From IMG/VR virus record IMGVR_UViG_3300022555_000014: a DNA stretch of 64,000 nucleotides. One strand, 5' to 3'. Below are positions 18,596-45,149 of this stretch, in pieces (positions within the stretch are counted from its first letter, which is position 1; the number at the start of each line of letters is the position of its first letter). The notes under the pieces were generated by a model. It had not been told where the DNA came from. It did no database searches and saw only the letters and a program-made list of their open reading frames with translations. Position numbers and translations under genes: made by a program. The stretch comes from an uncultured virus (IMG/VR IMGVR_UViG_3300022555_000014). Taxonomy: Duplodnaviria > Heunggongvirae > Uroviricota > Caudoviricetes.

Positions 18596-18599
18596 AACC

Positions 18600-19736: not shown

Positions 19737-19756
19737 AATTGTTGTCCCCCCTTTAA

Positions 19757-20117
19757 CTACTTCCACTTGCTCAGAAAATCAGCCTGCCTAGCTTCAGCCT
19801 CTTTGTGAGCAGCGTGTTCGTTACCTTTATCCTTTTGAACCTTTTTAAACACAGCGTTCCAGATTAGATAACTGTATTCTTTAACTAAACAAGTAGCCCA
19901 GTGAGTTCTAAACTCAGTTCCCCACGTAGCAGACACCTTATCCTTTAGTGTACCAATCGTACCCCAAAGCTTATCAGGGGTTAAGGCAATTTCTGATTGA
20001 AGCAAAGTGACAGTTAGTTTGTCGTGAACTGAGTGGAAAAACCGGTCTGGAGATTCCGGCCAGTTGTACTTGTTAAAGTGAGTAGGGGGTGTTATCGTGA
20101 TTATACTCTTTAGCCAT
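19757..20117 (-). pseudogene. hypothetical gene with apparent frameshift at a C5 run
   Basis: ATG 20117 (GAGGG RBS) reads MAKEYNHDNTP then stops; removing one base of the G5 run at about 20085-20089 joins it to the 19757..20005 frame. Confidence 0.45.
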
Positions 20118-25395: not shown

Positions 25396-25432
25396 TTTCT
25401 TTTTCTGCTTAAAAAACTTTAGAAATGCTTAA

Positions 25433-25549
25433 CAATTTCTCTTGACAAACTCCTTTATATAGAGTAGACTACGTAATCTTGCCTCCTCTCTTATAAGGCA
25501 TTTGAAAAACCATCTTACCAGAAGAGACAAGATTTGTCAAGAGAAATTT
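25433..25549. promoter_or_regulatory. two face-to-face sigma70-like promoters forming an inverted repeat
   Basis: Plus: AATTTCTCTTGACA...TAGACT; minus: AAATTTCTCTTGACA-N17-TAAGAT. Confidence 0.65.
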
Positions 25550-25637
25550 TCAACCTGATAACTTAATTTTGTAGTAACTGAAGATGTTCTCTAAAATCTT
25601 AGGTTGCACTACACGTCTTTCAAGGAGTTATTTTTAC

Positions 25638-26807
25638 ATGATCGAAAGCTTTGGTTCTACCTTCTTAGACGAGGCTACAGACTTGTTCTACTTGGACCGT
25701 AATTACGACCGTATGATGGCTAGTGCGGCTCGTAGTAACGTTAAAAATTCAGCTATTCTTTTTGGCATACAGGAAAAGCTGCCAGAGTTGTTAGCTGCTA
25801 TAGCGTCAGTTAATTCTAGCCTTAATCCTTTAGATTTGAATCTAAAGGCTCACCGTTATTCTGATCGGCAAGGTAAAAAGATTTGTAGTTTACACGTAGA
25901 CTCATCTAGTATAGAGTATAAGAAGTTCATCACTGCTATTCCCGCTAAGCGGATCAAGTCTTCTGACTTTAGTTCGGCTATGTCTTGTTATAAAGAGTTT
26001 AAAGAAGTTTTATCCTACGTAGGAACTAAGTCTGGAGCAACTTGTTTTGGAGTTATGGAGTTTGAGCTTCAGAAAATCCACGAGAAAAACCACATCACAG
26101 GAAAGGTGTCTACTGTCTCTTGTTTGCAGCCGCACATGCATATCCTTTCTACCAAGAAGTTAAAGGCTAAAGACTTTCCCGAATACTTTTTCGGAGATAT
26201 TAACGTTGACTCACTTTGTGCTGCTCGGCCACTAGTCAACAAAAATATTAAGCCCGGCACAGCTAAGCGTATTGTTAACTACCTGTTCAAACCTCTCAAG
26301 ACTTCTAACGTTTGGAAATTTACTGACGAGGTGACTGGAAAGCCTATTGGTCAGAAAAAGTACAACACCAAGACTCCGCCGTCTTACTTGATTCGTTTAA
26401 ACATTGAGTATCTCCTCAACAAGACTGAGATTACTGACACTATCATCTGCACCGACGATCTGAAAATTACTAAAACAGGAATCGTCACCACTAAAGAATT
26501 GTTACTCGCCCGTCAAAAGAAAATTGAGAAGCGGGAGAAGTTAGAAAAAATTAAACAACGGTTTGCTGAGCGTAAAGAGTCTAGAAAGTTGAAAAAACTT
26601 TCCGACCAAGAACGTAAGGCTCTCGCTGAACAGAAAAAACTTCAGGCTGAGTTGAAGGCTAACCTTAAGGCCGCACTCAAGCGCAAGGCTACAATTACTC
26701 CAGTCTACTCCACCGTTTTCGCCGTTGACTTTTCCACTCCGTCTTTCAATTCTTACGCTGGTACTGGTTTCCAGCAGACTGATTTGTTTGATCCAGAAGC
26801 GTTATAA
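25638..26807 (+). CDS. HUH-endonuclease (rolling-circle Rep-like) protein
   Basis: GVMEF, PHMHIL (HUH motif II), NYLFK (YxxK motif III); Lys-rich coiled C-terminus; AAGGAG RBS before ATG 25638. Confidence 0.7.
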   Translation: MIESFGSTFLDEATDLFYLDRNYDRMMASAARSNVKNSAILFGIQEKLPELLAAIASVNSSLNPLDLNLKAHRYSDRQGKKICSLHVDSSSIEYKKFITAIPAKRIKSSDFSSAMSCYKEFKEVLSYVGTKSGATCFGVMEFELQKIHEKNHITGKVSTVSCLQPHMHILSTKKLKAKDFPEYFFGDINVDSLCAARPLVNKNIKPGTAKRIVNYLFKPLKTSNVWKFTDEVTGKPIGQKKYNTKTPPSYLIRLNIEYLLNKTEITDTIICTDDLKITKTGIVTTKELLLARQKKIEKREKLEKIKQRFAERKESRKLKKLSDQERKALAEQKKLQAELKANLKAALKRKATITPVYSTVFAVDFSTPSFNSYAGTGFQQTDLFDPEAL

Positions 26808-27116
26808 GTGGCTTTAGTCTACGAAAAGCCACTGCCTTAGCCGACCTAGAGGAAGTCCGCTAAGAAGAATACACTCCTCAGACAATTTGAAGTGGTTAAA
26901 GGCTTGCCAGAATCGGCATAGCCTTCTATATTTTTGCCTTTTTTCTGGAGCAACCTTCTTTCAAACACCCTTCAACACCACGTTTCTACAGCCCAATCCC
27001 AGATTCGTCTTTTACAACCCCTCTTTATTCCAACAACCTACAGCCATACACTACCGTTTAACCATTATTTACCAGCCCTACTTTCCTCTATTCCAGAATC
27101 TGGGCTACAGTATTAC

Positions 27117-27300
27117 CCTCCCTAGTCCCCTCATTAAACAAATAGTAGAATACCTTCGGTGAAGTACTAATGGTTTAGAATAGTCAGGTATATCCTCCCT
27201 AGTCCCCTCATTAAACAAATAGTAGAATACCTTCGGTGAAGTACTAATGGTTTAGAATAGTCAGGTATATCCTCCCTAGTCCCCTCATTAAACAAATAGT
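27117..27300. repeat. 77-bp direct tandem repeat, about 2.4 copies
   Basis: Copies start at 27117, 27194 and 27271 (CCTCCCTAGTCCCCTCATTAAACAAATAGT...). Confidence 0.95.
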
Positions 27301-27465
27301 TAAATAATAGGAACATGTTTGCTAGGGGATCGAGCAACTTGAAAAAGATACTAACGGTTAGTAATAAATGATTGAGCTGACTGACTGACGGGTTAGTTGA
27401 AGTATTGAGGAGTACCAGGGTTAATTGACTCATTGGTTTAAGACTATTCCACCAGTCTAAAAGAA

Positions 27466-27521
27466 TTAAGGGGTTAAGGGGTTAAGGGGTTAAGGGGTTA
27501 AGGGGTTAAGGGGTTAAAGGG
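27466..27521 (+). repeat. (TTAAGGGG)6 plus TTAAAGGG telomere-like / G-quadruplex-prone repeat
   Basis: Directly visible. Confidence 0.95.
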
Positions 27522-27554
27522 TTAAAAGACTGCGGGTTAGCTGGTATCGATAGG

Positions 27555-28295
27555 ATTGACTCAGGATTGGAAAAGAATCCTTAAACTGGTCTACAATAAA
27601 CCGTTGTTAGTTAGAGGTACCTGTTAAAAAGAATCAATTGACTCTAAAGTCTAAGAACCCAGACTTGAAAATGACTCACTGGTAAAATAGAATCCAATAA
27701 GCTCAATAGACTCTAGTGAACTATACTAAGAATCCAACTACCACTTGACTCACTAGTACCAATAATTAAAAATAGTTGAGTCTAGACTCCTGAGTAAGAG
27801 CCAAAAAGAATCAAAAAACCAAACTGAATCCAAAAGCATCAATGACTCTAGTTAATACCCTTAGACCCTTAGACTACTAGTACTAGAATCCAAAGAGTAG
27901 TTGACTCACAGGTACGTAGTTGAATATAATTAAAAGTGGTTGGTTGAGTCCAGATAAGAATCGAAAATGATTCCTAGGAGTCACTAGAACTAACCCTTAG
28001 CTAAAAAGTGTAGATAAATTGAGTCCAAGGTAAGAGAAGAGTCAATAGGCACTCATAGTAGAATCCATTAAAAAAGAATCCAGAGTCACAGTTGAGTCCA
28101 ATGAGTCCAAGGTAAAGAGTCAATAGGATAGAGTCACAGTTGACTCACTAGTACCAAATAGTTAAAAGGAATCACTGTTGAGTCCAGATAAGAATCACTA
28201 GTAGTTAGAATAAGTGATTAAATAATAGTTGAGTCCAATGAGTCCGATTAAAAAGAGTCAATAAAAGTCAATAAAAATAAAAACCGGAGTCAAAA
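27555..28295. promoter_or_regulatory. dense GANTC (CcrM-type methylation site) array
   Basis: About 37 GANTC sites by manual count in about 740 bp, versus about 3 expected. Confidence 0.85.
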
Positions 28296-28653
28296 GAAAC
28301 ACTAGTACGTATAGTAAATGAGGTTAGAATAGGTAGTAAAGTGGTAGTAATAAAGGGGGTAAAAAATTTGGAGCCTTCGCGCAATCCGGCAAATGTCTAA
28401 ATATAGAGAATCGAAAAATCGGAACCCTCAAAAAATCCTTCCCGGTCTCCAGAGTTCCAAAAGTCACCCTCAGAATCCAAATCAATCCTCATAACCTATT
28501 ACACAACAAGCCCGTTTGAGACCTCCATTTTTCACAGAATCGGTTTTGTGTGTCCTAGCCTACCCAGAATCAAACTTTTTTAGAAAACCCAAAAAATCCA
28601 GAAAAAGTTAAAGTTAAAGAGTTTGGTGACTCTCAGAAATGTGCCCAAGTTAC

Positions 28654-28737
28654 TCTGAAAATAAAATTTCTCTGAAAATAAAATTTCTCTGAAAATAAAA
28701 TTTCTCTTGACAGGGTCGTTGTAGCCTGGTACACTGT
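28654..28737 (+). promoter_or_regulatory. sigma70-like promoter preceded by 17-bp repeat x3
   Basis: (TCTGAAAATAAAATTTC)x3 then TCTTGACA-N17-TACACT. Confidence 0.75.
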
Positions 28738-28786
28738 CCTCCAATCCAATGTTACACGAGAATATCCAATCCTAGGAGCAACAAAA

Positions 28787-29482
28787 ATGACCAAGACCTC
28801 GGCAGCGAGCCAGTCTCCTAAGCTTAACTACTTGCCTAGTGATTCAGTACTACTCAACCCTGGTACTAGTTTGTACACGTGGTCGTCAATCATCGACGCT
28901 ATCAAACAAGAGTTGGCTAAACTACAAACCTCGTACTTCTGTTTAACCGAAGGGCAGTTTGAAATGTTGTTTGGGTACCGTCTAGATGACGTGCCTGCAG
29001 AAGACATTGACTCGATGCTCTATTTAAAATCTGATGGCTCCCTGAGAGTTCTAGAACACGAGGTGAATGACATTTTGGTGTTAATCGTAACCCTTGATAA
29101 CCTAGTACCTGTCTTTATGGAGTTTGGGGTTGATCAACCTGTTCCTGACATAAACAAGAAAGTTAGACTGCCTAACCGTAAGGTATTATTGAACGATTTC
29201 ATGACTGACAATATGGTTGAAGCCTTAGATGAAGATAACATAGTCAGACAACCTAAAGAGGCTAACAAGTTATTCCAGTTTCTAGACAACCTCATGTTTG
29301 ATGCCACGTTGAAAATCAAGTGTGATGAAAACCTAAGAAAAGAGCTAATAACCAAATACCCTGGGAAAATAACCAAATACCCTGGAAACTTGCTGTTAAC
29401 CCATAAAGGTGTAATATTCTCAAACACTGTAGAAGGAATCCAATTCGCTAACCGAGTCCTAAACTGGCCTATCGAGTCCTAA
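28787..29482 (+). CDS. hypothetical protein
   Basis: AGGAG RBS; internal in-frame 21-bp duplication (ITKYPG x2). Confidence 0.7.
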   Translation: MTKTSAASQSPKLNYLPSDSVLLNPGTSLYTWSSIIDAIKQELAKLQTSYFCLTEGQFEMLFGYRLDDVPAEDIDSMLYLKSDGSLRVLEHEVNDILVLIVTLDNLVPVFMEFGVDQPVPDINKKVRLPNRKVLLNDFMTDNMVEALDEDNIVRQPKEANKLFQFLDNLMFDATLKIKCDENLRKELITKYPGKITKYPGNLLLTHKGVIFSNTVEGIQFANRVLNWPIES

Positions 29483-29599
29483 TATCATAAGACACTTCCA
29501 GTAAAACCCAGAGGCGTTAATTTGTGCTTGACACACTGAGACGCCTCTGGTACACTGCTCTTCAATCGGTTCCACCTTTGGACCCTTGTAGGAACGCCC

Positions 29600-29947
29600 A
29601 TGCCCTCTACCTCTGTGACTGTACGAGACAGTGCTCCTGGTATCTCTGGCACCCTAGTAGATAGTAAAACTCTATTCAACTTGCTTAAAGTTCATCCAGG
29701 AAAGATTAGGCTAAAAGACCCTAACACGTCTTCCTACTTGCAAGTAATCAAGAATCACCTATTAGCTGAACTGGTTGCTTGGTCTAACCCAACTAACCCA
29801 GTAACACCTTTCCCTAAGCTAACTTTCTCAATAACTAGAGGGGATTTGTACCTTAGAGGAATCCCTCCGTCTGTGTTTTCTGCAGTCAGGGAAAGGCACT
29901 TTGTACAACCCCTGAAACCAATAAAACCCCTACAACCCAAGAAATAA
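29600..29947 (+). CDS. hypothetical protein
   Basis: Preceded by a TTGACA...TACACT promoter and AGGA. Confidence 0.6.
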   Translation: MPSTSVTVRDSAPGISGTLVDSKTLFNLLKVHPGKIRLKDPNTSSYLQVIKNHLLAELVAWSNPTNPVTPFPKLTFSITRGDLYLRGIPPSVFSAVRERHFVQPLKPIKPLQPKK

Positions 29948-29959
29948 GGATACATACCT

Positions 29960-30599
29960 ATGATAGAGTACACTCCTGGAATTACCATCGAACGAGTTAC
30001 TTCTGGATTCTTTCGTTTAAGTGGCGACTCGATGATGTACGACCGTCGCCTAACAGACACCACCAACGGTAACGTCGCTCACGTCCGGCACAATGATAAT
30101 GGTCAACTTGCAGTTTACAGTAAAGACGGCGTTCTTGTAACTACCAAGACGTACAAAACCCTCTGTAAACCCTCTGTAAACCCTCTGGCAAGCCCACAAC
30201 GCTGCTGCTAAATACTTGGAGTTTGAACGTGGGTTACCCAAGTTTAAGGACAAGCTCACTACTCTCAACCATCTCAACCCCCAAGGAGGTGAACTAGTAA
30301 CTATTCCGGTTAACACTCAACGTACTGTTCTAGTAACCTACTGTAAACACGTCTGGGTGTCCGAAGTACCCCGTGACGTATGTCACTCTATGGATCAATT
30401 ACAGGTGGAGAATATTGTAGTAGTTGTGGTCAACATGCTGTTAGGAATTGATTTTATCAACACTATTGAGAAATACCTCCGTGACGTATGTCACATTCCT
30501 ACAGCAAAGATTGTAACCTTCAATGTGTTGGAACAAGTTCCTCCTGAGAATTCCTGGGTTAATCAACTTCTGCTGCCGCCTGAAATCCGTTATCTTTGA
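29960..30599 (+). pseudogene. single gene frameshifted by an 11-bp tandem repeat
   Basis: (AAACCCTCTGT)2 AAACCCTCTGG at 30156-30188; with one copy the frame reads YKTLWQAHNAAAKYLEFERG, joining track ORFs 29960..30211 and 30216..30599. Confidence 0.7.
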
Positions 30600-30614
30600 G
30601 AGTTGGAAGCAGCC

Positions 30615-31139
30615 ATGAAAAAACTAACCAAAATGAAGAGTCTCCTCACCCGTAAACAGGCTGTACAACAGAAAAAGGACGCGGCTGATCGAGCTAGAAT
30701 CGCTGCTAACATTGAAAAGTATGGACAGCACCTAGTTGGTGTGATGGAACCAGACTCTGACTTACTGCCGTTCACCTACAGTGTTGGCATGCATCAACTA
30801 GGTCTACCTGAGATTCTGATCATAGGACTTGAGCCAGGGATGGTAGCAGGAGTAATCAATCACTTGTGCGACATCCAACGTAGTAGAGGAGTTGGCTATA
30901 AAGACGGTGAGTTGATTGACATCGGTGGTAAATATCCAGTCAAAGCTATTGACGTTACAGGGTACGCTAATATGTTTGTCACCTTCTCACCTTGGTATTA
31001 CGGTCAACCTGTAAAAAGTGTACAAATCCTAGTCCCTGACAAGAAAGGTATATTCCCTGATGACAGTAAGTGTGACCCACTTTACGGCTTTGTCCCGATT
31101 CTAAACCCTCACCACTCCAAGAGTAAGAAACTGCACTGA
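30615..31139 (+). CDS. DUF4262-like protein
   Basis: IEKYG..V.V, PFTYSVG...GLPEILIIGL, QILVPDKKGIFP. Confidence 0.75.
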   Translation: MKKLTKMKSLLTRKQAVQQKKDAADRARIAANIEKYGQHLVGVMEPDSDLLPFTYSVGMHQLGLPEILIIGLEPGMVAGVINHLCDIQRSRGVGYKDGELIDIGGKYPVKAIDVTGYANMFVTFSPWYYGQPVKSVQILVPDKKGIFPDDSKCDPLYGFVPILNPHHSKSKKLH

Positions 31140-31198
31140 CGGAGTTTGGACTCTTCTGGTCAGGGAGTCCATTTACTCTTTTTAAGAGAGGTGTACCT

Positions 31199-32194
31199 AT
31201 GCAGACCCAAACCCTACAAACCCTTAATCCAGTCAACTGTGAAGTACTAGACGTTGAAGAGGTTAAACAGCATTTGGAAAGCGGACTGTCCGCAAGTTTT
31301 TTAGCGAGCTACTACAACATAAATAGTAATAGTTTCCTGGTTTGGATGAAGAAACAAGGGTTAGAAGACTACATTGGAAAGTCTACTCGTGTAGACAAAG
31401 TTCTAGACCCTGAACTAGAAACTATTAAAGAAAGGTTGGAAGCAGGAGAACCTCCTCATAAAATAGTTAATTACTACGACTGTTCTAGTAGCTCCTTTAA
31501 CACATGGTTACGAAAACAAGGACTCGGTGACTACATTAGATATCGCACAGATATAGCTACTCTACTACCTGAGTTGGAGCGTATTAAGGAAAAGCTAGAA
31601 GCAGGAGAATCTTCCCACTCTATAGCTATTCAGTACAACGTAAGCCATCAAGGGTTTACTAACTTGTTACGCAGTAATGGTCTAGGTACCTACATTAGGA
31701 CGATGAAAAACATAGACTCTTACCTTTCTTCAGAGTTTGACACCATTAAAGAGCTATTGGAATTAGGAGAATCTGCTCGCTCTGTAGCTATCAAGTATGA
31801 CATAAACCCTGGAGCCCTTTGTGGTTGGCTTAGACGCCATGGCTTAGGTGACTATATTGAAAGTTTCCGCAAGAGACTAGTCTATACAGATGACGATAAG
31901 GCTACAATAGTGAAGATGTTTATGTCTGGACAAAATCCAAGTAGTATCTGTAACACCTTAAACAAGGACAATTTAGGACCACCACATTTATTCTGTACAA
32001 TTAGCTTATTGTTGCTCAGACTTATTGGTAAAGATACCTACTCACATCAGATAAACCTTAACAGGCGAGTCAACACTTCGCAAGCTACAACTAAAATTCA
32101 TCTCTCTGGAGTTGACGGTGGAAAAAGAGGTAAAGGTCCTGGCAGTAGACTCACTGCACTTGCCGGACATTCTAAATACTACCGAGGCAACTGA
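31199..32194 (+). CDS. multi-HTH repeat DNA-binding protein
   Basis: Repeated units of about 53 aa, LE.GES...IA..Y.....WLR..GLG.YI. Confidence 0.75.
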   Translation: MQTQTLQTLNPVNCEVLDVEEVKQHLESGLSASFLASYYNINSNSFLVWMKKQGLEDYIGKSTRVDKVLDPELETIKERLEAGEPPHKIVNYYDCSSSSFNTWLRKQGLGDYIRYRTDIATLLPELERIKEKLEAGESSHSIAIQYNVSHQGFTNLLRSNGLGTYIRTMKNIDSYLSSEFDTIKELLELGESARSVAIKYDINPGALCGWLRRHGLGDYIESFRKRLVYTDDDKATIVKMFMSGQNPSSICNTLNKDNLGPPHLFCTISLLLLRLIGKDTYSHQINLNRRVNTSQATTKIHLSGVDGGKRGKGPGSRLTALAGHSKYYRGN

Positions 32195-32214
32195 CTTACA
32201 AAAGGAGAATCGTC

Positions 32215-33192
32215 ATGGCAACAATGGACTCAGTTCAGACTCTTTACCGAGACTTTATGGATGCTATAGGTAAAGTGCTTAAGAGTCCTAAAACTGAAAA
32301 CGCTATCAATCCTAAGTACCAATTGAATCAATTAAACAGATTGAACGTATCTCAAGTCCTTGACTTCTTGGACATCTTGAAACCTGAGTCAACACAGGGT
32401 AACGGAGTTAACGTAGTCAAAGCTGTGAATGCTTTCAATCAGGGTTTGCTGAGACTACCTTACTCCAACTGTCTATTTCTCATGCAATCTTCTGAAGACT
32501 TTAAAGATATACGATGTTTAGTCCAGCTAGCGGAGTTTGACAATGAATCCAATCCGCATCCCTATTATGAACCAACTCCAGAACAACTGCCTAAACAATC
32601 AAAATACCTGTCAATAACTGTTTATATCTATGTTGAGAAAGGCCATATTCGTGAAGACGGAGTCGCTATACCAGCAGGTATGAGCCCTCCTCCTTTAATG
32701 GAAGTGTTTCTATTTCCTAACCCTCAAGACATGAATGACCTAACCAAGTTCCTTGTTTATTTTGACATGTTCTACAGTCTGTCTGCCGACCAACAACATA
32801 GTGCTGTTACTTCCTTTCAACACACATGTTTTTACAGCTTAGAGAATTTACTACTCTTGCACACCAGTGACATCAAACTGAAAGGTTATGTAGACAAGAA
32901 AAGCAACCAACTCCGTAGACTTCGTGGTTTAGCGCCCTTGAAGAACTACTACATCACTGTTCTTAACCCTGATAAAAAGAAGGTGTTTGAGCGGCAGTTA
33001 CCTAAAGGAAGTCACGCTTCTCCTATAACACACGAACGTCGTGGTCATGACCGCACTTATTCTGACGGTAGAAGAGTTTGGGTTGCTCCAGTAACTGTTA
33101 ATAAAGACAAAGGTACACCAGTCGCTCGTCACTACAAGGTTGAACCTTCAAACGGAGATAAGGGCAATGTCAGTGGCATCGAAGAAATGTGA
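32215..33192 (+). CDS. conserved phage protein with C-terminal SPxxHxRRGH motif
   Basis: HASPITHERRGHDR...VWV. Confidence 0.7.
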   Translation: MATMDSVQTLYRDFMDAIGKVLKSPKTENAINPKYQLNQLNRLNVSQVLDFLDILKPESTQGNGVNVVKAVNAFNQGLLRLPYSNCLFLMQSSEDFKDIRCLVQLAEFDNESNPHPYYEPTPEQLPKQSKYLSITVYIYVEKGHIREDGVAIPAGMSPPPLMEVFLFPNPQDMNDLTKFLVYFDMFYSLSADQQHSAVTSFQHTCFYSLENLLLLHTSDIKLKGYVDKKSNQLRRLRGLAPLKNYYITVLNPDKKKVFERQLPKGSHASPITHERRGHDRTYSDGRRVWVAPVTVNKDKGTPVARHYKVEPSNGDKGNVSGIEEM

Positions 33193-33607
33193 CCGTGGGT
33201 CGTCAGTCGAAGTAACCTTTCTCCCTGGTGGAGCGTGTAATCTGTACGTAGTACCAGCAGAAGATTGGGAGACTTACGCTGGATTCCGCTTTAAGAAAGA
33301 ACACAGAACGATCAACCTTTTACTTGATCGTTCTGAGGCCGCAGAGTTTGGAGCTATCTTGACCCAGGGGTGGTCGGTAATATCTGACCCAGAAGGTATT
33401 CTACAACGAGGAATGTTTCCAGGTTGTATTCCGTTCTTGAGAGGATACGTTGCTGCAGCAATGTCTGTAACAGGAGGAATAGCTATATCTGCTTCTGGTA
33501 TAAACGGACCAACCTCAGTTCGTGCCGTTATTACGGAAAGAGAATTGCTGGAAATCGGGAGAGCAATACTCTGTCACACAAATATTGGTGTATCAGAACT
33601 CCTGTGA
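33167..33607 (+). CDS. hypothetical protein
   Basis: ORF overlapping the upstream stop. Confidence 0.55.
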   Translation: MSVASKKCDRGSSVEVTFLPGGACNLYVVPAEDWETYAGFRFKKEHRTINLLLDRSEAAEFGAILTQGWSVISDPEGILQRGMFPGCIPFLRGYVAAAMSVTGGIAISASGINGPTSVRAVITERELLEIGRAILCHTNIGVSELL

Positions 33608-33649
33608 CCTTGAGCTACAGTAAAATACACCAAACTAACGGAGACTACA

Positions 33650-34345
33650 ATGACAGACAAATTCGATCACATTAACAAGAAAATAGTAGAGTGTAAAACT
33701 ACAAGAGAGGTTTTGGCTACAGCACCACCAACTGCTGAGGTAGGTGTATGGGAAGAGGCTCAGGCTAAAATAGCTTCTCTTACGGAGAGAGTTCGGAGTT
33801 TGAATTGGCACACGTTGTTCTCCTTCACAATTAACAACACTAAATATGACTTGATCAAGTTTAACACTCTTGACACTTATATGGTGGTAAAGCCAGGAAT
33901 GACTGACGACCCTATGGAAGAGGTGCGTCCTACTAACAATGTTTACTTCTTCCTGTCTCTAGAAGAAACCTCCTATTCTGAAAAGTTAAAGCTCAATAAG
34001 AAATCAGCGTACAACCGTCCTATCTGGCAATGCACGGAGATCGGTACCTCAAACGCAGTACAGGGTGGTGGTATTGCCAAGACAGTACTGCTATGGTTGT
34101 TGAAGGATCAAAAGAAAATCTTGTGCTCTGGTCCGAACGAGTTCTTCCCTGCTAGAGTTGGTTGGTCTAGAATTTCTAACCGTCTAGACTTAGTCTGCGA
34201 TTTAGTTGACATAGACAAATACCAAGTCTTGCAAGACTTGGTAAAAGTCCACCAGGGCTTAAAAGATTCCGACTTTGATAAACGTTTGTGGGATTACGGT
34301 AACTTGCGTAACCACGTCCTATTAGTTGTTAGAGACGTTGTCTAG
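33650..34345 (+). CDS. GNAT-like protein, paralog of 12468..13145
   Basis: VQGGGIAK motif; NWHTL, DLVDI and FDKRLW blocks shared with the paralog. Confidence 0.6.
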   Translation: MTDKFDHINKKIVECKTTREVLATAPPTAEVGVWEEAQAKIASLTERVRSLNWHTLFSFTINNTKYDLIKFNTLDTYMVVKPGMTDDPMEEVRPTNNVYFFLSLEETSYSEKLKLNKKSAYNRPIWQCTEIGTSNAVQGGGIAKTVLLWLLKDQKKILCSGPNEFFPARVGWSRISNRLDLVCDLVDIDKYQVLQDLVKVHQGLKDSDFDKRLWDYGNLRNHVLLVVRDVV

Positions 34346-34404
34346 TCCGATGAGACAGATACGGATTACATTGAACCTCAACTCTGAAAAAGGAGTACCT
34401 AAAA

Positions 34405-35394
34405 ATGTTGCTGAACTTCGAAGCCTCTAACGTTTTGTGTTTCCAGAACGCTGTAGAGTTTTCTATGGTATCGAAAGACTCTACAGACGAGAATCTGCAA
34501 CCGTTAAATGTTGCCGCTGTGTTTGGAGCTAACAATCATGGTAAGACTTCTTTGTTTAGGTCTGTAGGAACGCTTAAGGATTGTGTTCTAACTGGCAGTA
34601 TTTTACCTGTGGTTCCTTTCAATACTAGTAGGGATACTACTTTGGAAGTAGTCTTTCGTCACCTTGGGGTTGACTATCAGTACGGATTGCATCTAAACAC
34701 TGAGTCTATTCTAGAGGAGTGGCTATTCAGCGGTGACACTTTGATTTTCCAAGTAGTTACTGAAACTACAGGTGAACGCGTGTGCGAGACCTCGTTGACT
34801 GTACCGCTTACTGAATGGCCTTGCGGCCAACTCTTGCTGTCGTACCTCAATTACCATGAGGTAATTGCACCAGTTTACTCTTGGTTTGAAGACGTGTTGG
34901 TAACACAAGCTCCTACTTTTGGTAGTGTACAAGATGCTTGTGTTAACGATCCAAAGCTAGCAACGTTTGTACAAAAGTTTTTAGAGGCTAGTGACGTAGC
35001 AGAAAACTCAATTTTTGTAGAATCTAGTAGTGTACAACAACTTAGTAACCTAGCCTACTTACTGTACAAGGCTACTAAGGAGAATAAAGTTATTTTCCTA
35101 GACGGGTTTGACGTAGGTTTACATTTAAATCTCAGTCTGGAAATTGTACGCTGGTTTACTAGACATGTTAACACTAACAGTCAGTTTGTTTTTAGTACCC
35201 ACAACACACTCCTTCTTGACTATCTACGCCGAGATTCTATTTGGTTTGTAAAGAAAGATTCTCTTGGAGACTCTTCCCTTTACTCTTTACTTGAGTTTAA
35301 AAAGCGTGAAAGCCAAACTGTTTCGAAGGACTACTTACAAGGGCGCTTTGATGGAGTTCCGTTCCTTAACTTCGATTCTTTGACTAGTGACTGA
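34405..35394 (+). CDS. RloA/AAA_21-like ABC ATPase (degenerate)
   Basis: AAVFGANNHGKTS, YQYG...ILEEWL, FLDGFD.GLH, QFVFSTHN, RRDSIWFV.K, YLQGRFDGVP. Confidence 0.8.
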   Translation: MLLNFEASNVLCFQNAVEFSMVSKDSTDENLQPLNVAAVFGANNHGKTSLFRSVGTLKDCVLTGSILPVVPFNTSRDTTLEVVFRHLGVDYQYGLHLNTESILEEWLFSGDTLIFQVVTETTGERVCETSLTVPLTEWPCGQLLLSYLNYHEVIAPVYSWFEDVLVTQAPTFGSVQDACVNDPKLATFVQKFLEASDVAENSIFVESSSVQQLSNLAYLLYKATKENKVIFLDGFDVGLHLNLSLEIVRWFTRHVNTNSQFVFSTHNTLLLDYLRRDSIWFVKKDSLGDSSLYSLLEFKKRESQTVSKDYLQGRFDGVPFLNFDSLTSD

Positions 35395-35484
35395 TCTGAA
35401 AGTAACACCTTGTTAAAATTGTTCTTGACAAGCAGACAGGTTAGTGGTACACTGGTTTTTCAACTGTTGCTACGGAGACAACTC

Positions 35485-35904
35485 ATGGTTCCTAAAACGC
35501 TAACGATTATAGCTGTGTGTGGTTTGCTTTACTACATCTTAGGAGAAGATGTACTTTGGTTTGACGACCATGCCGCTTTATCCATGTGGATAGTAGTTGC
35601 TGCTACTGTTATAGCAATAATGTTTATCATTTCAATGATCTTTGACGAATACGAAGGTTGGTTTTTAAATTTAATCATTATTGGTCTGTGTTCAGTTTTA
35701 TTTTCTCTTGTGCGTGTCGAAAAAGTGAACTACGCACTATGTTTAACTAAACCTGCTTGTGCCGAGTCTAAGCAACAAACTACTGAAAAAACTCTATCTG
35801 AAAAGAAGAAGTTTTGTCAAAGTTTTGTCTCTTACTTAAATACTCTTTCTGATGAAGAAAAAGTAACTGCTTTGCGTTTAACCAGAACCCTTTGCAACTA
35901 CTAA
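35485..35904 (+). CDS. membrane protein
   Basis: Three hydrophobic helices; GGAG RBS; upstream TTGACA...TACACT promoter. Confidence 0.65.
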   Translation: MVPKTLTIIAVCGLLYYILGEDVLWFDDHAALSMWIVVAATVIAIMFIISMIFDEYEGWFLNLIIIGLCSVLFSLVRVEKVNYALCLTKPACAESKQQTTEKTLSEKKKFCQSFVSYLNTLSDEEKVTALRLTRTLCNY

Positions 35905-35919
35905 TTGGGGAAGTTGATC

Positions 35920-36207
35920 ATGCAAAGAGTTGAATTGCCTATAAGCTTGGAAGAAGTGGTAGAGCTATATAACAGCGGCAAGTCTATCAAAAAGATAGCA
36001 GACTATCTAGGTGTGAGTGCTTGGACCCTGCACGATAGGCTTAGGAAAGCAGATGTTAAACTACGCCCTATAGGACGAAATCCTAAGCCTATCGACCTAG
36101 ATAAAGTTAGAAAATTGCGTAATGAGGGTGTAAGTTGGGCTAATATTAGTATAGAGTTGGGCTTGTGTAGGGAAAGTCTAAGAGTGCGCTTTGAAAAAGC
36201 AGCTTAA
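35920..36207 (+). CDS. tandem HTH protein
   Basis: LYNSGKSIKKIADYLGVS; second unit LRNEGVSWANIS. Confidence 0.75.
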   Translation: MQRVELPISLEEVVELYNSGKSIKKIADYLGVSAWTLHDRLRKADVKLRPIGRNPKPIDLDKVRKLRNEGVSWANISIELGLCRESLRVRFEKAA

Positions 36208-36231
36208 CGCTGTAAAAGGAGGGATAAACCG

Positions 36232-36870
36232 ATGCCTATTAGTACCGAGCTAAAGCAACGTGTGTACGACCTGTACGCTAGTGGAAAAACTTTGTTGCAG
36301 GTTAGTCAAGCAACTGGAGTTGGTGTACCGATTGTAAGAGAAATAGTAAGACCTATTATTAGAAAGGCGGGTGGCGTCCACTTAAAAAAGTTTGACCGAG
36401 AGGAAGCCGAAAAACTCTATTCAGAAGGTAAAAGTCTGCGAGAGGTCGGTAGGCTATTAGGTGTAAGTTACGAAGCGGTTCGTTTGGTTCTTTCTAACAC
36501 TAGAACTCCAGGTTTTTATAAGTATCCGGATACTTACGTTAGTTCTGATGTGGTGGTTAAAGAGTTTGTTGATGGCTTATCTATGATTGCAATTTCTGAG
36601 AAATACGATGTAACTATAGGTTATGTCCGACAGACATTGACATCTGCTGGACTAAACACTATTAGAAATTATGATAATAAGGCCAAACTTGATCTTGATG
36701 AAGACAAGTTAGTAGAACTCTACGAAAGCGGTAAAAGTTTATCTAAGCTTAGCACTATGTTTGGAGTAAGTGTCACCACCATACAACGCAGACTTAAAGA
36801 TAACGGTGTGGTTATGCATCCTCCTGGTACTAAATTCTTTGTAAAAGAAGATGAACAAATCAGTGCTTGA
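36232..36870 (+). CDS. four-repeat HTH protein
   Basis: Repeated LY.SGKSL..V....GVS units. Confidence 0.8.
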   Translation: MPISTELKQRVYDLYASGKTLLQVSQATGVGVPIVREIVRPIIRKAGGVHLKKFDREEAEKLYSEGKSLREVGRLLGVSYEAVRLVLSNTRTPGFYKYPDTYVSSDVVVKEFVDGLSMIAISEKYDVTIGYVRQTLTSAGLNTIRNYDNKAKLDLDEDKLVELYESGKSLSKLSTMFGVSVTTIQRRLKDNGVVMHPPGTKFFVKEDEQISA

Positions 36871-37063
36871 CAGCCAGGTAATCCTGTGGTAATATCATCG
36901 TCATCACATCTCCAAGGAGATAAATGACCCATGACCCCTTCACCAAGGGCTGCCCTACAATCCACACTATCTACGGACCAATTGACATTGCATACCTCAA
37001 AGAGTGTCAAAATCTAGCAGCTTGAAGGTCAAATCCTTAGCCGAAGGCAAACAGGAGGTTTTT

Positions 37064-37483
37064 ATGCCAACTCCCTTAACAACTTCTGAAGAAGACCTAA
37101 TATGTCGTGACTATAAGTCTGGCGAATCGTTAGATTCGATATGCAAGACTTATAAAATAGGCATAACTCAGTTAAAGAAGTTGTTGAAGGAGTCTGGTGT
37201 AAAACAGCCTAAGAAAGACATAGACTTTTCCACTTTGGCTAAAGACTACGAAAAAGGAAAATCGCTAAAAACTCTAGCTGTTGAGAACAACGTGTCTCTA
37301 TCTCACATGTGGTGCGGTCTTAGGGATAAGGTAAAATTTAGAGATAAAGGTAGAAATCGTAAGTTTGACTACGCTTATGCAAAACACCTTTACTCAAGCG
37401 GTTTGACCTTCAGAGATATAGCTAAGCTATTGGATGTCAGTCCAGAAGCCGTACGTCTAGTAATAACTCAACTACAAAAGTAA
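37064..37483 (+). CDS. three-repeat HTH protein
   Basis: YKSGESL, YEKGKSL, YSSGLTF units; AGGAGG RBS. Confidence 0.8.
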   Translation: MPTPLTTSEEDLICRDYKSGESLDSICKTYKIGITQLKKLLKESGVKQPKKDIDFSTLAKDYEKGKSLKTLAVENNVSLSHMWCGLRDKVKFRDKGRNRKFDYAYAKHLYSSGLTFRDIAKLLDVSPEAVRLVITQLQK

Positions 37484-37488
37484 CCTTC

Positions 37489-37854
37489 ATGGAACACCGG
37501 GAACACAGGGAACTCAAGAACGCAAGTAGAGATTCTTTAGTCGTAAGTCTGTACACGTCAGGTAGTACCTACTCCGAGATAGTAGAAATTGTGAGTGTCA
37601 GCACCAAGACTGTACGAAAAATACTTAAACAGAACAACATTCCAATACGAAAGTCTGGATGTAGAGCGTTAGAGATTGATCTGGAAGCCATTGCTAAAGG
37701 CTACGAAAACGGTAAATCCCTTCTATATTTGAGTAAGGTCTTAGGAGTAAGCCACGACACTGTCTACCGACGCTTGAAAGAAGCCGGTTATCCAATTAAG
37801 AGAACTGTTGAAAAGGAACTAAGTAATGTCTGCAGAGACGAATTGGCCTCTTAG
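37489..37854 (+). CDS. tandem HTH protein
   Basis: LYTSGSTYSEI and YENGKSL...LGVSHDTVYRRL. Confidence 0.75.
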   Translation: MEHREHRELKNASRDSLVVSLYTSGSTYSEIVEIVSVSTKTVRKILKQNNIPIRKSGCRALEIDLEAIAKGYENGKSLLYLSKVLGVSHDTVYRRLKEAGYPIKRTVEKELSNVCRDELAS

Positions 37855-38782
37855 AAAAGAGGACCTTTACGATAGGTTTATTGTTCAGAATTTAAGCCAT
37901 AAGCAAATTGCTGACCAAGTAGGTGTCTCAGAATCTGCTGTGTCTGGATTGTTGTACCGGCTAAACATCTTTAAAAACAAAGAAGGGCGGACACCTGAAG
38001 AAATTGAACGTCGGAAGGAAGAGATTCGCTCTAGGCGAAGGGATCGTAGGCGTGAGCTTAGAAAAGACCCTGTCAAGGCTGAGCAAGAGTTGGAGCGTTT
38101 GAGGGTTATAGAAGAAGCTCGAGAAGAGGCTCGTCGTCTCAAGAAAGAAAAACAAGAACTGCGTCAACAGGCTAAGCAGGAAGCCAAATTAGGACGAATT
38201 GAAGCTGACTTACTACGGAAACAACGTAAGGAAGAAAAGCTTAAAGCTTCTGAGTTGAAAGAGAAATGTTCTCAACTAAAACAACAAGATAAGTTGTTTA
38301 AACAGAAGATGAAGGAGGCTAGGGTTAACGCTCGTGCTAACTCTAAGCTTCTAAAAGAGGCTCAGGAAGAACAAAAGAGGCTAGATAAGGTTGCCTTGCA
38401 GGAAGCTAAAAACCGAGCCAAAGAAGAATTGAAAATAGCCAAAGCTCTTGCTCGTGAATTGGCTAAAGCTTCTAAGTCGGTTAAGTCCCCTAAGACCGCC
38501 AGACTTGAGAAGGTCAACCCGGAACAAACTCCTGTGATTGTTGTGTCGGCGGCTACACAAGTTACTGAGGTTACTGTCGTTACTGATGTTGTAGAGGACT
38601 ACTTTAGTGTCCTAGCTGACCCTAAACAGCCAAAAGGGTGTAGGTTCATCCACGGAGACATTGGTCCTAAAGAGAACTGGAGCTTTTGTCAGCAGCCCAA
38701 GGTGTCAAACAGCAGCTACTGTAAAAAACATCACGATATATGTCACACAGGTTTCTTTCTGTCCTATAAGAAGGTAGCTTAA
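37826..38782 (+). CDS. gcrA: GcrA-like cell-cycle transcriptional regulator
   Basis: N-terminal HTH (LSHKQIADQVGVSESAVSGLLYRL), long charged linker, C-terminal CRFIHGD...FC..P....SYCKKH signature. Confidence 0.8.
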   Translation: MSAETNWPLRKEDLYDRFIVQNLSHKQIADQVGVSESAVSGLLYRLNIFKNKEGRTPEEIERRKEEIRSRRRDRRRELRKDPVKAEQELERLRVIEEAREEARRLKKEKQELRQQAKQEAKLGRIEADLLRKQRKEEKLKASELKEKCSQLKQQDKLFKQKMKEARVNARANSKLLKEAQEEQKRLDKVALQEAKNRAKEELKIAKALARELAKASKSVKSPKTARLEKVNPEQTPVIVVSAATQVTEVTVVTDVVEDYFSVLADPKQPKGCRFIHGDIGPKENWSFCQQPKVSNSSYCKKHHDICHTGFFLSYKKVA

Positions 38783-44849: not shown

Positions 44850-45149
44850 ATGTCTGACTCGATTCTCTTCCCTAAGTTGGCGAAAGCTACACAGGAACTC
44901 TACGGAACAGGATTTGTCATGAAAGGTCGAAGACTGGATACTTGGGTGAAGAAAGTCGGTGACATCTCAGTAACCGCCTTTATTGAACCTGTAGAGTCCA
45001 ACTCTATCACTAAGGGAGTTGTTAAGGCGTTGGTTAAAACCGACGCTCCTAACTTTCAAGAGTTTGGTGATGATGACGATAACGGCCTCTCTAATCTCAT
45101 GGCAGTCATTGGCGTGACTAGGTCACAGCCGAGAGCCCAACTCCCATAA
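44850..45149 (+). CDS. hypothetical protein, paralog of 53972..54208
   Basis: GF...R.D.WV.K...I.A.IEP....I.KG.V shared. Confidence 0.65.
   Translation: MSDSILFPKLAKATQELYGTGFVMKGRRLDTWVKKVGDISVTAFIEPVESNSITKGVVKALVKTDAPNFQEFGDDDDNGLSNLMAVIGVTRSQPRAQLP

Follow-up and report, generated by a model that had tools for sequence, protein, structure and literature searches.

The window analyzed here is a 64,000-nucleotide stretch of the genome, at least 126 kb long, of an uncultured virus, and its assignment to a phage rests solely on PHROG-type replication genes found within these 64 kb. The window is densely coding, unlike a gene-free block of 1,979 bp (26808-28786) that separates P0001, a gene whose product has HUH and YxxK motifs, from the first rightward gene. 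The features relevant to this locus are:

25395..25584, no strand: intergenic point where the strands diverge, with a back-to-back pair of promoter-like sites, 25442-25470 (+) and 25540-25512 (-), each with 10/12 matches (ORF layout, promoter scan)
25584..26807, +: P0001, ORFan, 407 aa (motifs, ESM Atlas leads)
26807..26925, +: three successive hairpins directly after the P0001 stop, terminator-like or nick-site-like (DNA fold)
27117..27300, no strand: perfect 77-bp tandem repeat, 2.4 copies in the window (TRF)
27466..27525, +: (TTAAGGGG) x 7.5 tandem repeat (TRF)
27558..28291, +: array of 37 GANTC sites in a single orientation (counts, shuffles, flank statistics)
28408..28571, +: four more GAATC sites in the block's right-hand part, 3/4 in CAGAATC context
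28653..28707, +: AT-rich 17-bp tandem repeat x 3.2 (TRF)
28707..28735, +: promoter-like TTGACA-17-TACACT with extended TG, 52 bp upstream of P0003 (promoter scan)
28787..29482, +: P0003, 231 aa, first gene right of the block, no family match
31199..32194, +: tandem-HTH protein, 4-5 modules (Pfam HTH_7 and HTH_Tnp_1; NF040595 below cut-off)
35905-36207, +: tandem-HTH gene, 2 modules
36232-36870, +: tandem-HTH gene, 4 modules
37004-37483, +: tandem-HTH gene, 3 modules
37489-37854, +: tandem-HTH gene, 2 modules
37826..38782, +: P0002, GcrA-like, 318 aa (Pfam, alignments, ESM Atlas)

An earlier note on this DNA described a non-coding block of about 2 kb beside an HUH-motif gene, at the strand divergence. 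The block itself is borne out: in 27434-28323 the ORF listing contains none that reaches 50 aa, the longest stop-free run of the array is 47 codons, and four of the six short block ORFs of at least 50 aa, when scanned, give no Pfam match at E <= 0.1. The placement requires correction, as the strands diverge upstream of P0001, 1.2 kb left of the block, next to a leftward replication module with clamp loader, SbcC-like and DnaC-like genes.

The array is extreme. Within 734 bp, it contains exactly the 37 GANTC sites counted in the earlier note, against 3.8 expected from the background rate of the window and 4.0 +/- 1.9 (maximum 10) in 500 dinucleotide shuffles of the array. A density scan of the whole window peaks in the block, with 35 sites in the densest 750 bp; the runner-up outside the block, at 58.5 kb, has 14 and is explained by Asp/Glu/Ser codons. 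Altogether, the 64 kb contain 367 GANTC sites (237.6 +/- 14.4 in shuffles, none of 100 reaching 367), with an observed/expected ratio (O/E) of 1.19 outside the block, i.e. without depletion. Among the XXNXX-type words of the array, GANTC is the most enriched by a wide margin (37 vs 3.9 expected), followed by AANAA (28 vs 6.2). Sites with one mismatch to GANTC are depleted (19 vs 38.3 +/- 4.8 in shuffles), which implies that the exact core is maintained.

The sites share an extended word, W-W-G-A-N-T-C-(A/C)-A-n-n-G, and fall into several sub-classes, including TTGAGTCCA, AGAATCCA, TTGACTCACTAGTAC and AGAGTCAATAGG, for which the GANTC core is the sole common part. The flanks run one way: C follows the site in 16/37 cases and G precedes it in only 3/37, and there is an A at position +6 in 23 sites and a G at position +9 in 20. 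The central base is G in 15 sites, A in 12, C in 9 and T in one. Spacing is irregular (7-56 bp), with no helical phasing (best resultant 0.21). Contigs covering the array come from three lake/freshwater studies, of 2016, 2017 and 2020; a 1,195-nt array contig is letter-identical between the 2017 and 2020 runs, and the 2016 runs carry two differences in the array, neither within a GANTC. The array is stable across these populations, although two SNPs among populations do not suffice to demonstrate selection on the sites, and no relatives were found for comparison.

Hairpins and other tandem repeats flank the array. The hairpin region (26800-27120) folds as DNA with z = -2.79, and 1/100 shuffles folds equally well. 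In four runs, the k-mer depth of the 77-bp unit exceeds that of its flanks by a factor of 14-70, and the JGI contig ends inside this repeat, which probably has many more copies in the real genome. The + strand of the (TTAAGGGG) repeat shows stretches of four G, and a version 32 bp shorter appears in contigs from two runs. No other 40 bp of the block are as AT-rich (34/40) as those in the 17-bp repeat, which may serve for unwinding or as an upstream element of the promoter. Such perfect adjacent repeats of variable copy number show that repeats are actively expanding in the block. The strand carrying all array sites is 41% A and serves as sense strand for the gene on either side. These observations would fit a transcribed block whose one-way motifs act on the RNA, as a long leader or a sponge for proteins, or a functionless, recently expanded satellite. 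Either is hardly probable: the block has no Rfam match, its RNA fold has only a slight edge over shuffled sequence (z = -1.8 and -2.4; 20 shuffles each), and the array combines diverged flanks with an exact core, in contrast to the 77-mer and 8-mer repeats, which are perfect. Together with the near-miss depletion, this pattern favors selection over fresh expansion.

The protein adjoining the block, P0001, probably starts at M19 (25638) and contains the motifs H184-M-H186-I and Y233-L-F-K236, a pair that is improbable by chance, arising in 5/2000 shuffles. Its sole match among 5.8e9 clusters and 1.84e9 representatives is a copy 99% identical. A Pfam search finds nothing at E <= 10, nor is there a PDB match or any HMM or BLAST support for an initiator, and the AlphaFold model has a pLDDT of 33. 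ESM Atlas places the protein near Rep_1/G2P rolling-circle initiator clusters (REP_ORF2-G2P, 0.94; Rep_1, 0.93, TM 0.41-0.50), which is to be taken as a lead only. The HUH call is thus carried by the motifs and the language-model leads, and homology searches add nothing to them. P0001 is possibly an HUH rolling-circle initiator or a transposase relative; an initiator of this type in a genome of at least 126 kb would be unusual.

The GcrA-like gene reported at 37826-38782 is confirmed. P0002 scores 31.2 bits against the Pfam GcrA model (cut-off 26.9) and consists of an N-terminal HTH, a Lys/Glu/Arg-rich linker of about 180 aa that looks coiled-coil-like by eye, and a C-terminal CCCH finger (C272-X15-C288-X10-C299-X2-H302); ESM Atlas assigns the C-terminus to GcrA clusters. 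Judging from its sequence, P0002 is a true GcrA-family member. Alignment with phiCbK gp222 and Pam5 gp57 indicates that the zinc finger and several sigma-contact positions of the sigma-interacting domain are retained. By contrast, alignment with the GcrA DNA-binding domain (chain 5yiu_A) shows that three of the four methyl-pocket residues are lost (R33, N34 and I37 of GcrA are replaced by E, S and S), and P0002 differs from GcrA at 5/7 DNA-contact positions, so that GANTC reading is not to be assumed.

The earlier note suggested a tie of the array to host methylation and the cell cycle in an alphaproteobacterial setting. On this account, selection would keep the sites as targets for a host or phage CcrM/HinfI-type adenine methylase, and initiation or transcription would depend on whether they are methylated, as with GATC clusters and SeqA at oriC, or else the array soaks up methylase or host GcrA. 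The invariant GA-N-TC with three common central bases matches the CcrM/HinfI-type and GcrA specificity described in the relevant part of PMC4647560, near-miss sites are depleted, and the phage encodes a GcrA-family protein. Passages of PMC7139368 add that GANTC methylases are often encoded by phages of Alphaproteobacteria and that a jumbo phage at 37.7% GC can infect a host 18% GC-richer, and the section of PMC6090056 on repABC origins describes these as GANTC-rich. However, no methyltransferase family is detected among the approximately 80 ORFs scanned in the window (64 kb of the at least 126-kb genome). GANTC is undepleted outside the block, whereas O/E is 0.64 in phiCbK and, in the data quoted from PMC8919816, methylating Alphaproteobacteria show a depletion of more than 2-fold. 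One-way sites with asymmetric flanks are needless for a palindromic methylation target; the GcrA-preferred context YGAKTCK occurs in just 5/37 array sites, compared to 81/330 outside the array; and the methyl-pocket residues of P0002 are replaced. The host hints, weak as they are, point away from Alphaproteobacteria, to a restriction-rich, possibly cyanobacterial host, and neither of two other GcrA-encoding phages has such an array (at most 4 sites per 750 bp in Pam5 and 9 in phiCbK). Methylation of the GANTC adenine, and its relevance, is a live rival reading, albeit an unsupported and unlikely one. The earlier interpretation is accordingly supported for the array, the motif gene and the GcrA-family gene, and unsupported for the methylation/cell-cycle link.

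Another possibility is that the array is not an origin but a transcription platform or decoy, the cognate landing pad of the GcrA-like sigma cofactor and/or the tandem-HTH proteins. Close to the early promoter at 28707, the array would then gather RNA polymerase or regulators, or keep them sequestered, and in this way set the timing of the early-to-late switch. GcrA is described in parts of PMC4647560 and PMC5887438 as a monomeric HTH protein that reads GANTC asymmetrically, with flank preferences, in agreement with the one-way, flank-biased sites of the array. P0002 retains the CCCH finger and several sigma contacts, and its long linker could confer multivalency. Promoter-like sites are enriched in 25000-29500 (18 vs 8.5 +/- 3.3), a near-consensus one (11/12) is located within the array at 27901-27930, and the array lies directly upstream of a rightward operon ending in the HTH and GcrA-like genes. 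Nevertheless, this scheme appears improbable given the 5/7 altered DNA contacts of P0002, the absence of GANTC from the three best flanking promoter-like sites and, in our reading, array word pairs that are not at promoter spacing.

P0002 is the last of six HTH genes downstream of the block, which together encode about 16 small HTH modules that could target short repeated words. The five tandem-HTH genes match NF040595 (Cbp1-like) with 30-56 bits; Cbp1 orthology was rejected because these scores are far under the model cut-off of 140 bits. Several of the HTH proteins show weak matches to small-terminase HTH families. Plasmid and phage centromeres typically consist of many short same-direction boxes, and pac sites are bound by small terminase; a partition (centromere-like) or packaging-recognition site, with short boxes bound by a small DNA-binding adaptor, would accommodate these matches, the centromere-type arrangement of the array and the several distinct repeat families of the block. 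This alternative is very unlikely, considering that the window contains no ParA, ParM, TubZ, ParB or terminase gene and that the assemblies lack genome-end signs at the block, apart from repeat-caused contig breaks.

The explanation we favor, tentatively and at somewhat less than an even chance, is that the block is a cis-acting DNA region with an iteron-like array to which proteins bind, at either an origin or a control region of replication. In the array, a degenerate word of about 12 bp is repeated head to tail 37 times, and GANTC alone is invariant in it. A phage-encoded sequence-specific DNA-binding protein, for which P0002, one of the five tandem-HTH proteins and P0001 are candidates, would load on the array many times in one direction, and the array would bind or titrate an initiator or regulator. 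The likeliest role is that of a phage replication origin or replication-control region, with the initiator perhaps supplied by the HUH-motif gene on the left and melting at the AT-rich 17-mers on the right. This reading is favored by the site density, the exact core, the near-miss depletion, the single orientation and the sub-classes united by GANTC alone. The 2-kb gene-free context 1.2 kb from the divergence and beside the replication module, the flanking tandem repeats and AT-rich 17-mers, the motifs and Rep_1/G2P leads of P0001, the stability of the array in the 2016, 2017 and 2020 runs, and the approximately 16 HTH modules encoded downstream point in the same direction. Against it stand the irregular spacing, unlike that of classical iterons, and the number of sites, as we know of no origin that approaches 37. 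The block contains no DnaA-box variant (one loose match only), no CtrA-type box and no pC194-type nick word, and the cumulative GC-skew minimum falls near 33 kb, away from the block. The homology searches and low-pLDDT model of P0001, the lack of relatives, the two SNPs, and a phage call made from replication genes, with no structural gene in the 64-kb window, also weigh against an origin.

Among known systems, ori2 of Vibrio cholerae is a close parallel: as described in the ori2 sections of PMC6090056, it carries head-to-tail 11-/12-mer iterons, such arrays being the iteron hallmark, with a Dam GATC in each 12-mer, and RctB binds the 12-mers only in the methylated state. In both arrays, the short repeats run in the same direction and each embeds a palindromic word for adenine methylation in a longer, asymmetric site, and both lie beside an initiator gene (here the candidate P0001); the extra repeats of ori2 titrate the initiator. 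The same sections give ori2 six regular 12-mers (10-11 bp spacing) and a few more, against 37 irregular sites here, and the word is GATC rather than GANTC; RctB is not an HUH protein, and the origin role of the phage array is putative. The repABC replicons of Alphaproteobacteria, in the part of PMC6090056 devoted to them, have GANTC-rich origin and counter-transcript promoters and thus resemble the phage block, whose role is putative, in GANTC enrichment at the replication-control region of an extrachromosomal element; they differ in having a handful of sites, RepC binding that is methylation-independent in vitro, another initiator family and an alphaproteobacterial host.

The GcrA/CcrM-dependent sigma-70 promoters of Caulobacter, as presented in parts of PMC4647560 and PMC5887438, have one or two GANTC each, preferably YGAKTCK, and GcrA homologs are noted in phiCbK-like phages and Pseudanabaena phage Pam5 (portions of PMC3556154 and PMC9382816). 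P0002 shares the GcrA-type N-terminal HTH and CCCH sigma-interacting finger, and GANTC is the word that, in those descriptions, GcrA reads asymmetrically as a monomer. The phage differs in having 37 sites in a row, 5/37 fitting YGAKTCK, in E/S/S at R33/N34/I37 and in a linker of about 180 aa instead of about 60 aa; no comparable GANTC array occurs in phiCbK or Pam5.

E. coli oriC and the P1 plasmid origin contain GATC clusters that are read by SeqA and act Dam-dependently. Methylation-type words are over-packed locally in both, and P1 is a phage too; however, about 5-11 sites occupy at most 250 bp with no single orientation, whereas the phage array is directional, and the host methylase is known there. 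PMC6090056 also mentions oriC/ori1 and SeqA. In P0001, the HUH and Tyr motifs occur next to same-direction short repeats and hairpins. HUH rolling-circle initiators, such as pMV158 RepB and parvovirus Rep with its tetranucleotide repeats, likewise bind short direct repeats beside the nick site, but those origins hold 3-4 repeats, P0001 matches no Rep profile, and the phage block yielded no nick site. Finally, Cbp1 of Sulfolobus binds the direct repeats of CRISPR arrays through tandem HTH modules (NCBIfam NF040595 description). The five phage genes with 2-5 tandem small HTH modules, at 30-56 bits, all score far below 140 bits and are not orthologs, but Cbp1 may serve as a precedent for a multi-HTH protein that reads a direct-repeat array.

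The 37 GANTC sites that the earlier note counted in 27558-28291 (734 bp) are all present, and this array is by far the densest found in the analysis. At the background rate of the window, 3.8 sites are expected in such a stretch, and shuffled versions of the array contain 4.0 +/- 1.9 sites (maximum 10, n=500). The densest 750-bp window holds 35 sites compared with 14 in the densest one elsewhere outside the surrounding block; GANTC letters account for 25% of the array, and no other word of the form XXNXX comes close to the enrichment of GANTC (37 vs 3.9 expected). The array is embedded in a gene-free block together with several other repeats:

26808-28786: gene-free block (1,979 bp), without credible ORFs
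26807-26925: three hairpins, near the gene of the HUH-motif protein P0001
27117-27300: perfect 77-bp tandem repeat
27466-27525: (TTAAGGGG) x 7.5 tandem repeat
27558-28291: GANTC array
28653-28707: AT-rich 17-mer x 3.2, abutting a promoter-like site
52 bp upstream of the first rightward gene: promoter-like TTGACA-17-TACACT with TG

The strand divergence, originally placed at this block, is actually located 1.2 kb to the left of it: according to the ORF layout, genes are oriented leftward up to 25395 and rightward from 25584. Two other GANTC-dense spots were considered as arrays and rejected. At 58.7-59.1 kb, the sites are created by the Asp/Glu/Ser codons of an acidic-repeat ORF, and at 14-16.4 kb, where the density is about threefold the background, they are scattered within or beside the TnpB gene. 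The former ORF (58673-59524) encodes a long Asp/Glu/Ser acidic repeat whose GAC/GAT-TCN codons generate the second-densest GANTC spot (14 per 750 bp); on the opposite strand, it is overlapped by an ORF of 220 aa.

The sites of the array conform to a consensus of about 12 bp, WWGANTC-M-A-n-n-G. At each of the two positions 5' of the site, 34 of the 37 copies have A or T. On the 3' side, 32 copies have A or C as the next base, 23 have A at position +6 and 20 have G at position +9. A C comes directly after the site in 16 copies, a G directly before it in just 3. In the centre, A is found in 12 copies and T in a single one. Given this asymmetry of the flanks and the bias of the central base, all 37 sites share one direction (+ strand). 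The recurrent sub-classes (TTGAGTCCA, AGAATCCA, TTGACTCACTAGTAC, AGAGTCAATAGG and GAGTCACAGTTGA) have only the GANTC core in common, and pentamers one mismatch away from GANTC are halved in number (19 vs 38.3 +/- 4.8 in shuffles). The flanks have drifted, and the core is kept exact. Spacing is irregular, from 7 to 56 bp with a median of 17, and the best periodicity (resultant 0.21 at 10.5 bp) does not amount to helical phasing. A position-weight scan identifies no second cluster of the extended word in the window.

Comparison of contigs from short-read runs shows that a 1,195-nt contig covering 27488-28682 is letter-identical between one run of 2020 and one of 2017. Two runs of 2016 differ at 27725 and 27791, both outside the GANTC pentamers, two differences being too few for a test. 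A promoter array was rejected as the main explanation: although GACTC and GAATC share letters with -35-like and -10-like words, the pairs are off promoter spacing. The exactness of the core, the shared direction of the flanks, the scarcity of near-misses and the position of the array point to a protein-binding array under selection. A function at the RNA level, or no function at all, appears highly improbable; among the sequencing runs listed, no RNA data carry 25500-29500.

The position in question is a gene-free, multi-repeat block beside a replication module, a strand switch and the HUH-motif gene. The window has a GC content of 41%. The right arm consists for the most part of ORFans, and the left arm carries genes for replication and repair:

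left arm: clamp loader (phrog_5846, 3e-62)
left arm: SbcC-like protein, DnaC-like loader and T4 endonuclease V-like glycosylase
left arm: RtcB, RF-1-domain protein and thymidylate-synthase-like fusion
14030-15784 (-): TnpB, 584 aa, with OrfB_IS605 and a Cas12f-like TNB domain, inside the replication arm

No structural genes, tRNA genes or Rfam families were found in the 64-kb window, so that the designation "phage" is inferred from the PHROG-type genes; no protein shares as much as 32% identity with its best match among known phages. An 89-kb JGI contig represents the same element (two segments were compared and show no mismatch, and the clamp loader sequences are 100% identical). This contig ends within the 77-bp repeat, at about window position 27242, and extends 62 kb further left; thus, the genome is at least 126 kb long. 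The region 25500-29500 is present in 8 runs from 3 lake or freshwater studies (2016, 2017 and 2020). No relatives were detected in viral contigs for P0001, the NYN protein, P0003 (the product of the first gene to the right of the block), the clamp loader, the GcrA-like protein P0002 or the protein P0004, and a blastn search of 25500-33000 against phages gave no match. In metagenome contigs, the clamp loader retrieves only the same phage and an unrelated contig of 69% GC (35% identity) that lacks the array.

Several other genes in the window deserve mention. The gene for the RF-1-domain protein, an ArfB-like peptidyl-tRNA hydrolase (17975-19766, minus strand), adjoins that of RtcB. The GcrA-encoding phage phiCbK likewise possesses RtcB-like and peptidyl-tRNA hydrolase genes, which suggests a common tRNA/ribosome-rescue kit. 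In 34405-35904, a 164-aa protein, apparently hydrophobic and membrane-associated by eye, is encoded after an AAA_21 ABC-type ATPase (phrog_5836, 8e-46), and the two may constitute a defence or anti-defence pair. A calpain-family (Peptidase_C2) protein of 945 aa is encoded in an island of raised GC (45000-51000, 47-50% vs 41%). Metagenome proteins make up most of its relatives (34-45% identity), which also include proteins of Aquitalea and Siculibacillus; the relatives with an assigned taxon are mixed Proteobacteria, and the gene was probably acquired horizontally.

The gene to the left of the block (25584 or 25638 to 26807, plus strand) encodes P0001, a protein of 407 aa; a near-identical database copy begins at M19. 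The protein contains H184-M-H186-I and, 49 residues on, Y233-L-F-K236. In a post hoc test with 2000 composition-preserving shuffles of the sequence, 5 contained an HUH and YxxK pair in this order and at this spacing. Among 5.8 billion clusters and 1.84 billion representatives, the sole homologue is a 99% identical copy. P0001 matches no Pfam family at E<=10 and nothing in PHROG, NCBIfam or PDB, and it has neither a plasmid match nor a relevant phage match by tblastn at E<=10. The feature neighbours in the ESM Atlas, which are to be taken as leads, are REP_ORF2-G2P (0.94) and Rep_1 (0.93); the ESM Atlas model (pTM 0.56) aligns with Rep_1 clusters at TM 0.41-0.50, and one nearby Rep_1 cluster also contains IS91-type transposases. 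The AlphaFold model, built with no alignment input, has a pLDDT of 33, too low to be of use for fold comparison. Thus, the HUH/YxxK gene proposed in the earlier note stands as far as the motif pair is concerned, and neither a family profile nor a family member matches it. That P0001 is an HUH enzyme seems an even bet or slightly better, and such a candidate enzyme could be either an initiator or a rolling-circle transposase.

With this candidate beside it, the array is read by preference, albeit tentatively, as an iteron-like origin or a replication-control region. Several observations go against an origin: the spacing is irregular, the number of sites (37) has no precedent, the GC-skew minimum lies 5 kb away, and boxes for host factors are absent from the block, which contains no DnaA-box variant apart from one loose match and no CtrA-type box. 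The AT-rich 17-mers at 28653-28707 could serve as an unwinding element. The pC194-type nick word matches the window 16 times, with none of the 16 matches inside the block. A protein-bound array in a gene-free block might alternatively serve as a partition or packaging site, which we consider very unlikely.

The repeats that accompany the array are themselves unusual. The k-mer depth of the 77-bp unit is 14-70x that of its flanks in four runs, and the 77-mer and 8-mer arrays are shorter in the contigs of some runs, possibly owing to contig collapse by the assembler; for example, one run's contig has a one-copy form of the 77-bp repeat, and the contigs of two 2016 runs have a (TTAAGGGG) array that is 32 bp (4 units) shorter. 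Together, the k-mer depth and the shorter contig forms indicate that these neighbouring repeats are longer and more variable than the window shows; the real 77-bp array is probably 1-5 kb and variable, or else the unit is present elsewhere too. The 77-bp unit shows no folding (z = 0.25). On the + strand, the (TTAAGGGG) repeat has TTAA between its eight runs of four G; this telomere-like sequence is prone to form G-quadruplexes. In three of four runs (X1, X4 and X7), another contig, of 2,567 nt, includes a 56-bp stretch of the block (28527-28582) that differs at 5 positions and has 2 gaps; in the fourth (X6), loose ends at the same two places suggest that it is there too. The flank in that contig again has GACTC and GATTC, and the match may represent a further copy, located either in another part of the genome or in a relative.

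The gene 37826-38782 (plus strand) encodes P0002, a protein of 318 aa. In accord with the GcrA-like gene claimed before, it passes the cut-off of the Pfam GcrA family (PF07750; 31.2 bits, cut-off 26.9, E 3.3e-07) through its N-terminal HTH, the best stretch spanning only profile positions 2-67. Its C-terminus contains a CCCH finger, C272-X15-C288-X10-C299-X2-H302. In Caulobacter GcrA, the domain that interacts with sigma is likewise a CCCH finger, of the form C-X14-C-X9-C-X2-H (PMC5887438). An alignment of the P0002 finger with phiCbK gp222 and gp57 of Pam5, another GcrA-encoding phage, reveals invariant G, C, R, D, P, C, Y and C, and the C-terminal 83 residues lead to GcrA clusters in the ESM Atlas (0.83, TM 0.56; a lead). 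No homologues of the C-terminus were identified by word-based search, by tblastn against phages or by phmmer against PDB. Taken together, the Pfam score, the CCCH finger, the finger alignment and the ESM Atlas result identify P0002 as a GcrA-family protein. It differs from Caulobacter GcrA in its linker, which is about 180 residues long, Lys/Glu/Arg-rich and coiled-coil-like by eye, compared with about 60 residues. Proteins of the GcrA type bind region 2 of the primary sigma factor and prefer GANTC DNA that carries m6A. In the GcrA DNA-binding domain, the bases are read and the two methyl pockets are built by R33, N34, I37, G38, K39, H41 and R42 (PMC5887438). In a weak alignment with the chain 5yiu_A (E 0.92, 13.4 bits), five of these are replaced in P0002 (R33 by E, N34 by S, I37 by S, K39 by L and H41 by Y), and only G38 and R42 are retained.

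Six HTH genes lie consecutively or close together, and the P0002 gene is the final one; the remaining five are paralogues:

31199-32194 and within 35905-37854: five tandem-HTH genes, with 2-5 small HTH modules each and about 15 modules in all

The tandem-HTH proteins match the model for Cbp1 far below the cut-off. Cbp1 is a tandem-HTH protein that binds CRISPR direct repeats. An array that acts as a transcription platform or a decoy using the GcrA-like and tandem-HTH proteins would be compatible with an origin, and we give this use a modest chance at best. A more specific proposal, to which we give a still smaller chance, is that P0002, with or without the tandem-HTH proteins, and the array together form a multivalent device that traps or loads the host's transcription apparatus. 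P0002 would have retained the sigma-70-binding zinc finger while its HTH was re-tuned, and the coiled-coil-like linker could allow the protein to form oligomers. P0002, by itself or in company with the tandem-HTH proteins, would cover the 37 one-way GANTC-core sites, and RNA polymerase holoenzyme would thereby be gathered or sequestered in the region of the origin and early promoter. On this proposal, the array would serve a sigma cofactor as an enhancer-like or sponge-like element in a host that is not an alphaproteobacterium, and adenine methylation might affect how it works.

The identity of the host bears on the original model, in which the phage couples initiation or gene expression to host methylation and the cell cycle or uses the array as a CcrM/GcrA sponge. 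No methyltransferase family was detected among the approximately 80 ORFs scanned in the 64-kb window of this genome of at least 126 kb. Outside the block, GANTC is not avoided (O/E 1.19); the corresponding value for phiCbK is 0.64. In methylating Alphaproteobacteria, according to excerpts of PMC8919816, GANTC is depleted more than 2-fold (log2 O/E of about -1.1 to -1.8). The methylation model is compatible with an origin and has, in our estimate, a modest chance at best. Ten 6-bp palindromes are absent from the window (1.9-12.2 expected each), namely ATTAAT (12.2 expected), GACGTC (10.5), TGGCCA (7.2), AGATCT, CGATCG, GTGCAC, AGGCCT, GAGCTC, GCCGGC and TGCGCA; GGCC (0.53), GATC (0.69) and CCTNAGG are depleted. 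The absent palindromes and the depletion of GGCC and GATC are a signature of a restriction-rich host. The C-terminal 140 or so residues of TnpB have their top-scoring plasmid matches in Nostoc and Trichormus (44-49% identity), and a TnpB search of genome contigs gave no match; a search with RtcB gave one MAG match at 40% identity. Pam5 is described in the accessible part of PMC9382816 as a freshwater cyanophage with an annotated GcrA gene. The TnpB matches, the restriction signature and the precedent of Pam5 weakly suggest a cyanobacterial host. A low-GC large phage of an alphaproteobacterium is possible as well; excerpts of PMC7139368 describe a phage of 37.7% GC that infects a host 18% richer in GC and encodes its own GANTC methylase.

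The array, a diverged GcrA-type sigma cofactor and the tandem-HTH family occur in the same abundant, recurrent lake phage. Should these proteins read the array, and should it function as an origin or a polymerase-loading pad, GcrA-type biology would reach past cell-cycle promoters and possibly past Alphaproteobacteria; the array and its reader would then form a compact, testable DNA-protein pair, and arrays of this kind could flag the origins of further large phages that are uncultured. Should its sites prove to be methylated, no larger methylation-site array would have been described at a phage control region. In titles and the beginnings of abstracts, the literature searched yielded no description of a phage GANTC array.

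Full scans of the two GcrA-encoding phages revealed 29 GANTC sites in the 39.5 kb of Pam5 (maximum 4 per 750 bp) and 279 in the 205.5 kb of phiCbK (maximum 9 per 750 bp, the peak lying in its tRNA cluster near 52 kb). With an array in neither of the two, it is not a general companion of phage GcrA genes. The GcrA-like gp222 gene of phiCbK (159422-160293) adjoins a strand divergence, with gp223 oriented leftward and gp224 rightward.

Words of the methylation type that are packed in origins couple replication to the cell, as in oriC, P1 and Vibrio ori2. To our knowledge, all such packed-word origins are small, being either GATC-based or those of alphaproteobacterial replicons with few GANTC sites. 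Iteron origins contain several direct repeats that share one orientation, a trait also seen in the 37 sites. Their repeats are regular, helically phased and about 17-22 bp long, whereas the array described here has irregular spacing and a word of about 12 bp. In Vibrio ori2, the initiator recognises 12-mers arranged head to tail, every one of which includes a methylation word (PMC6090056). Vibrio ori2 is the nearest known design to the array when the latter is read as an iteron-like origin.
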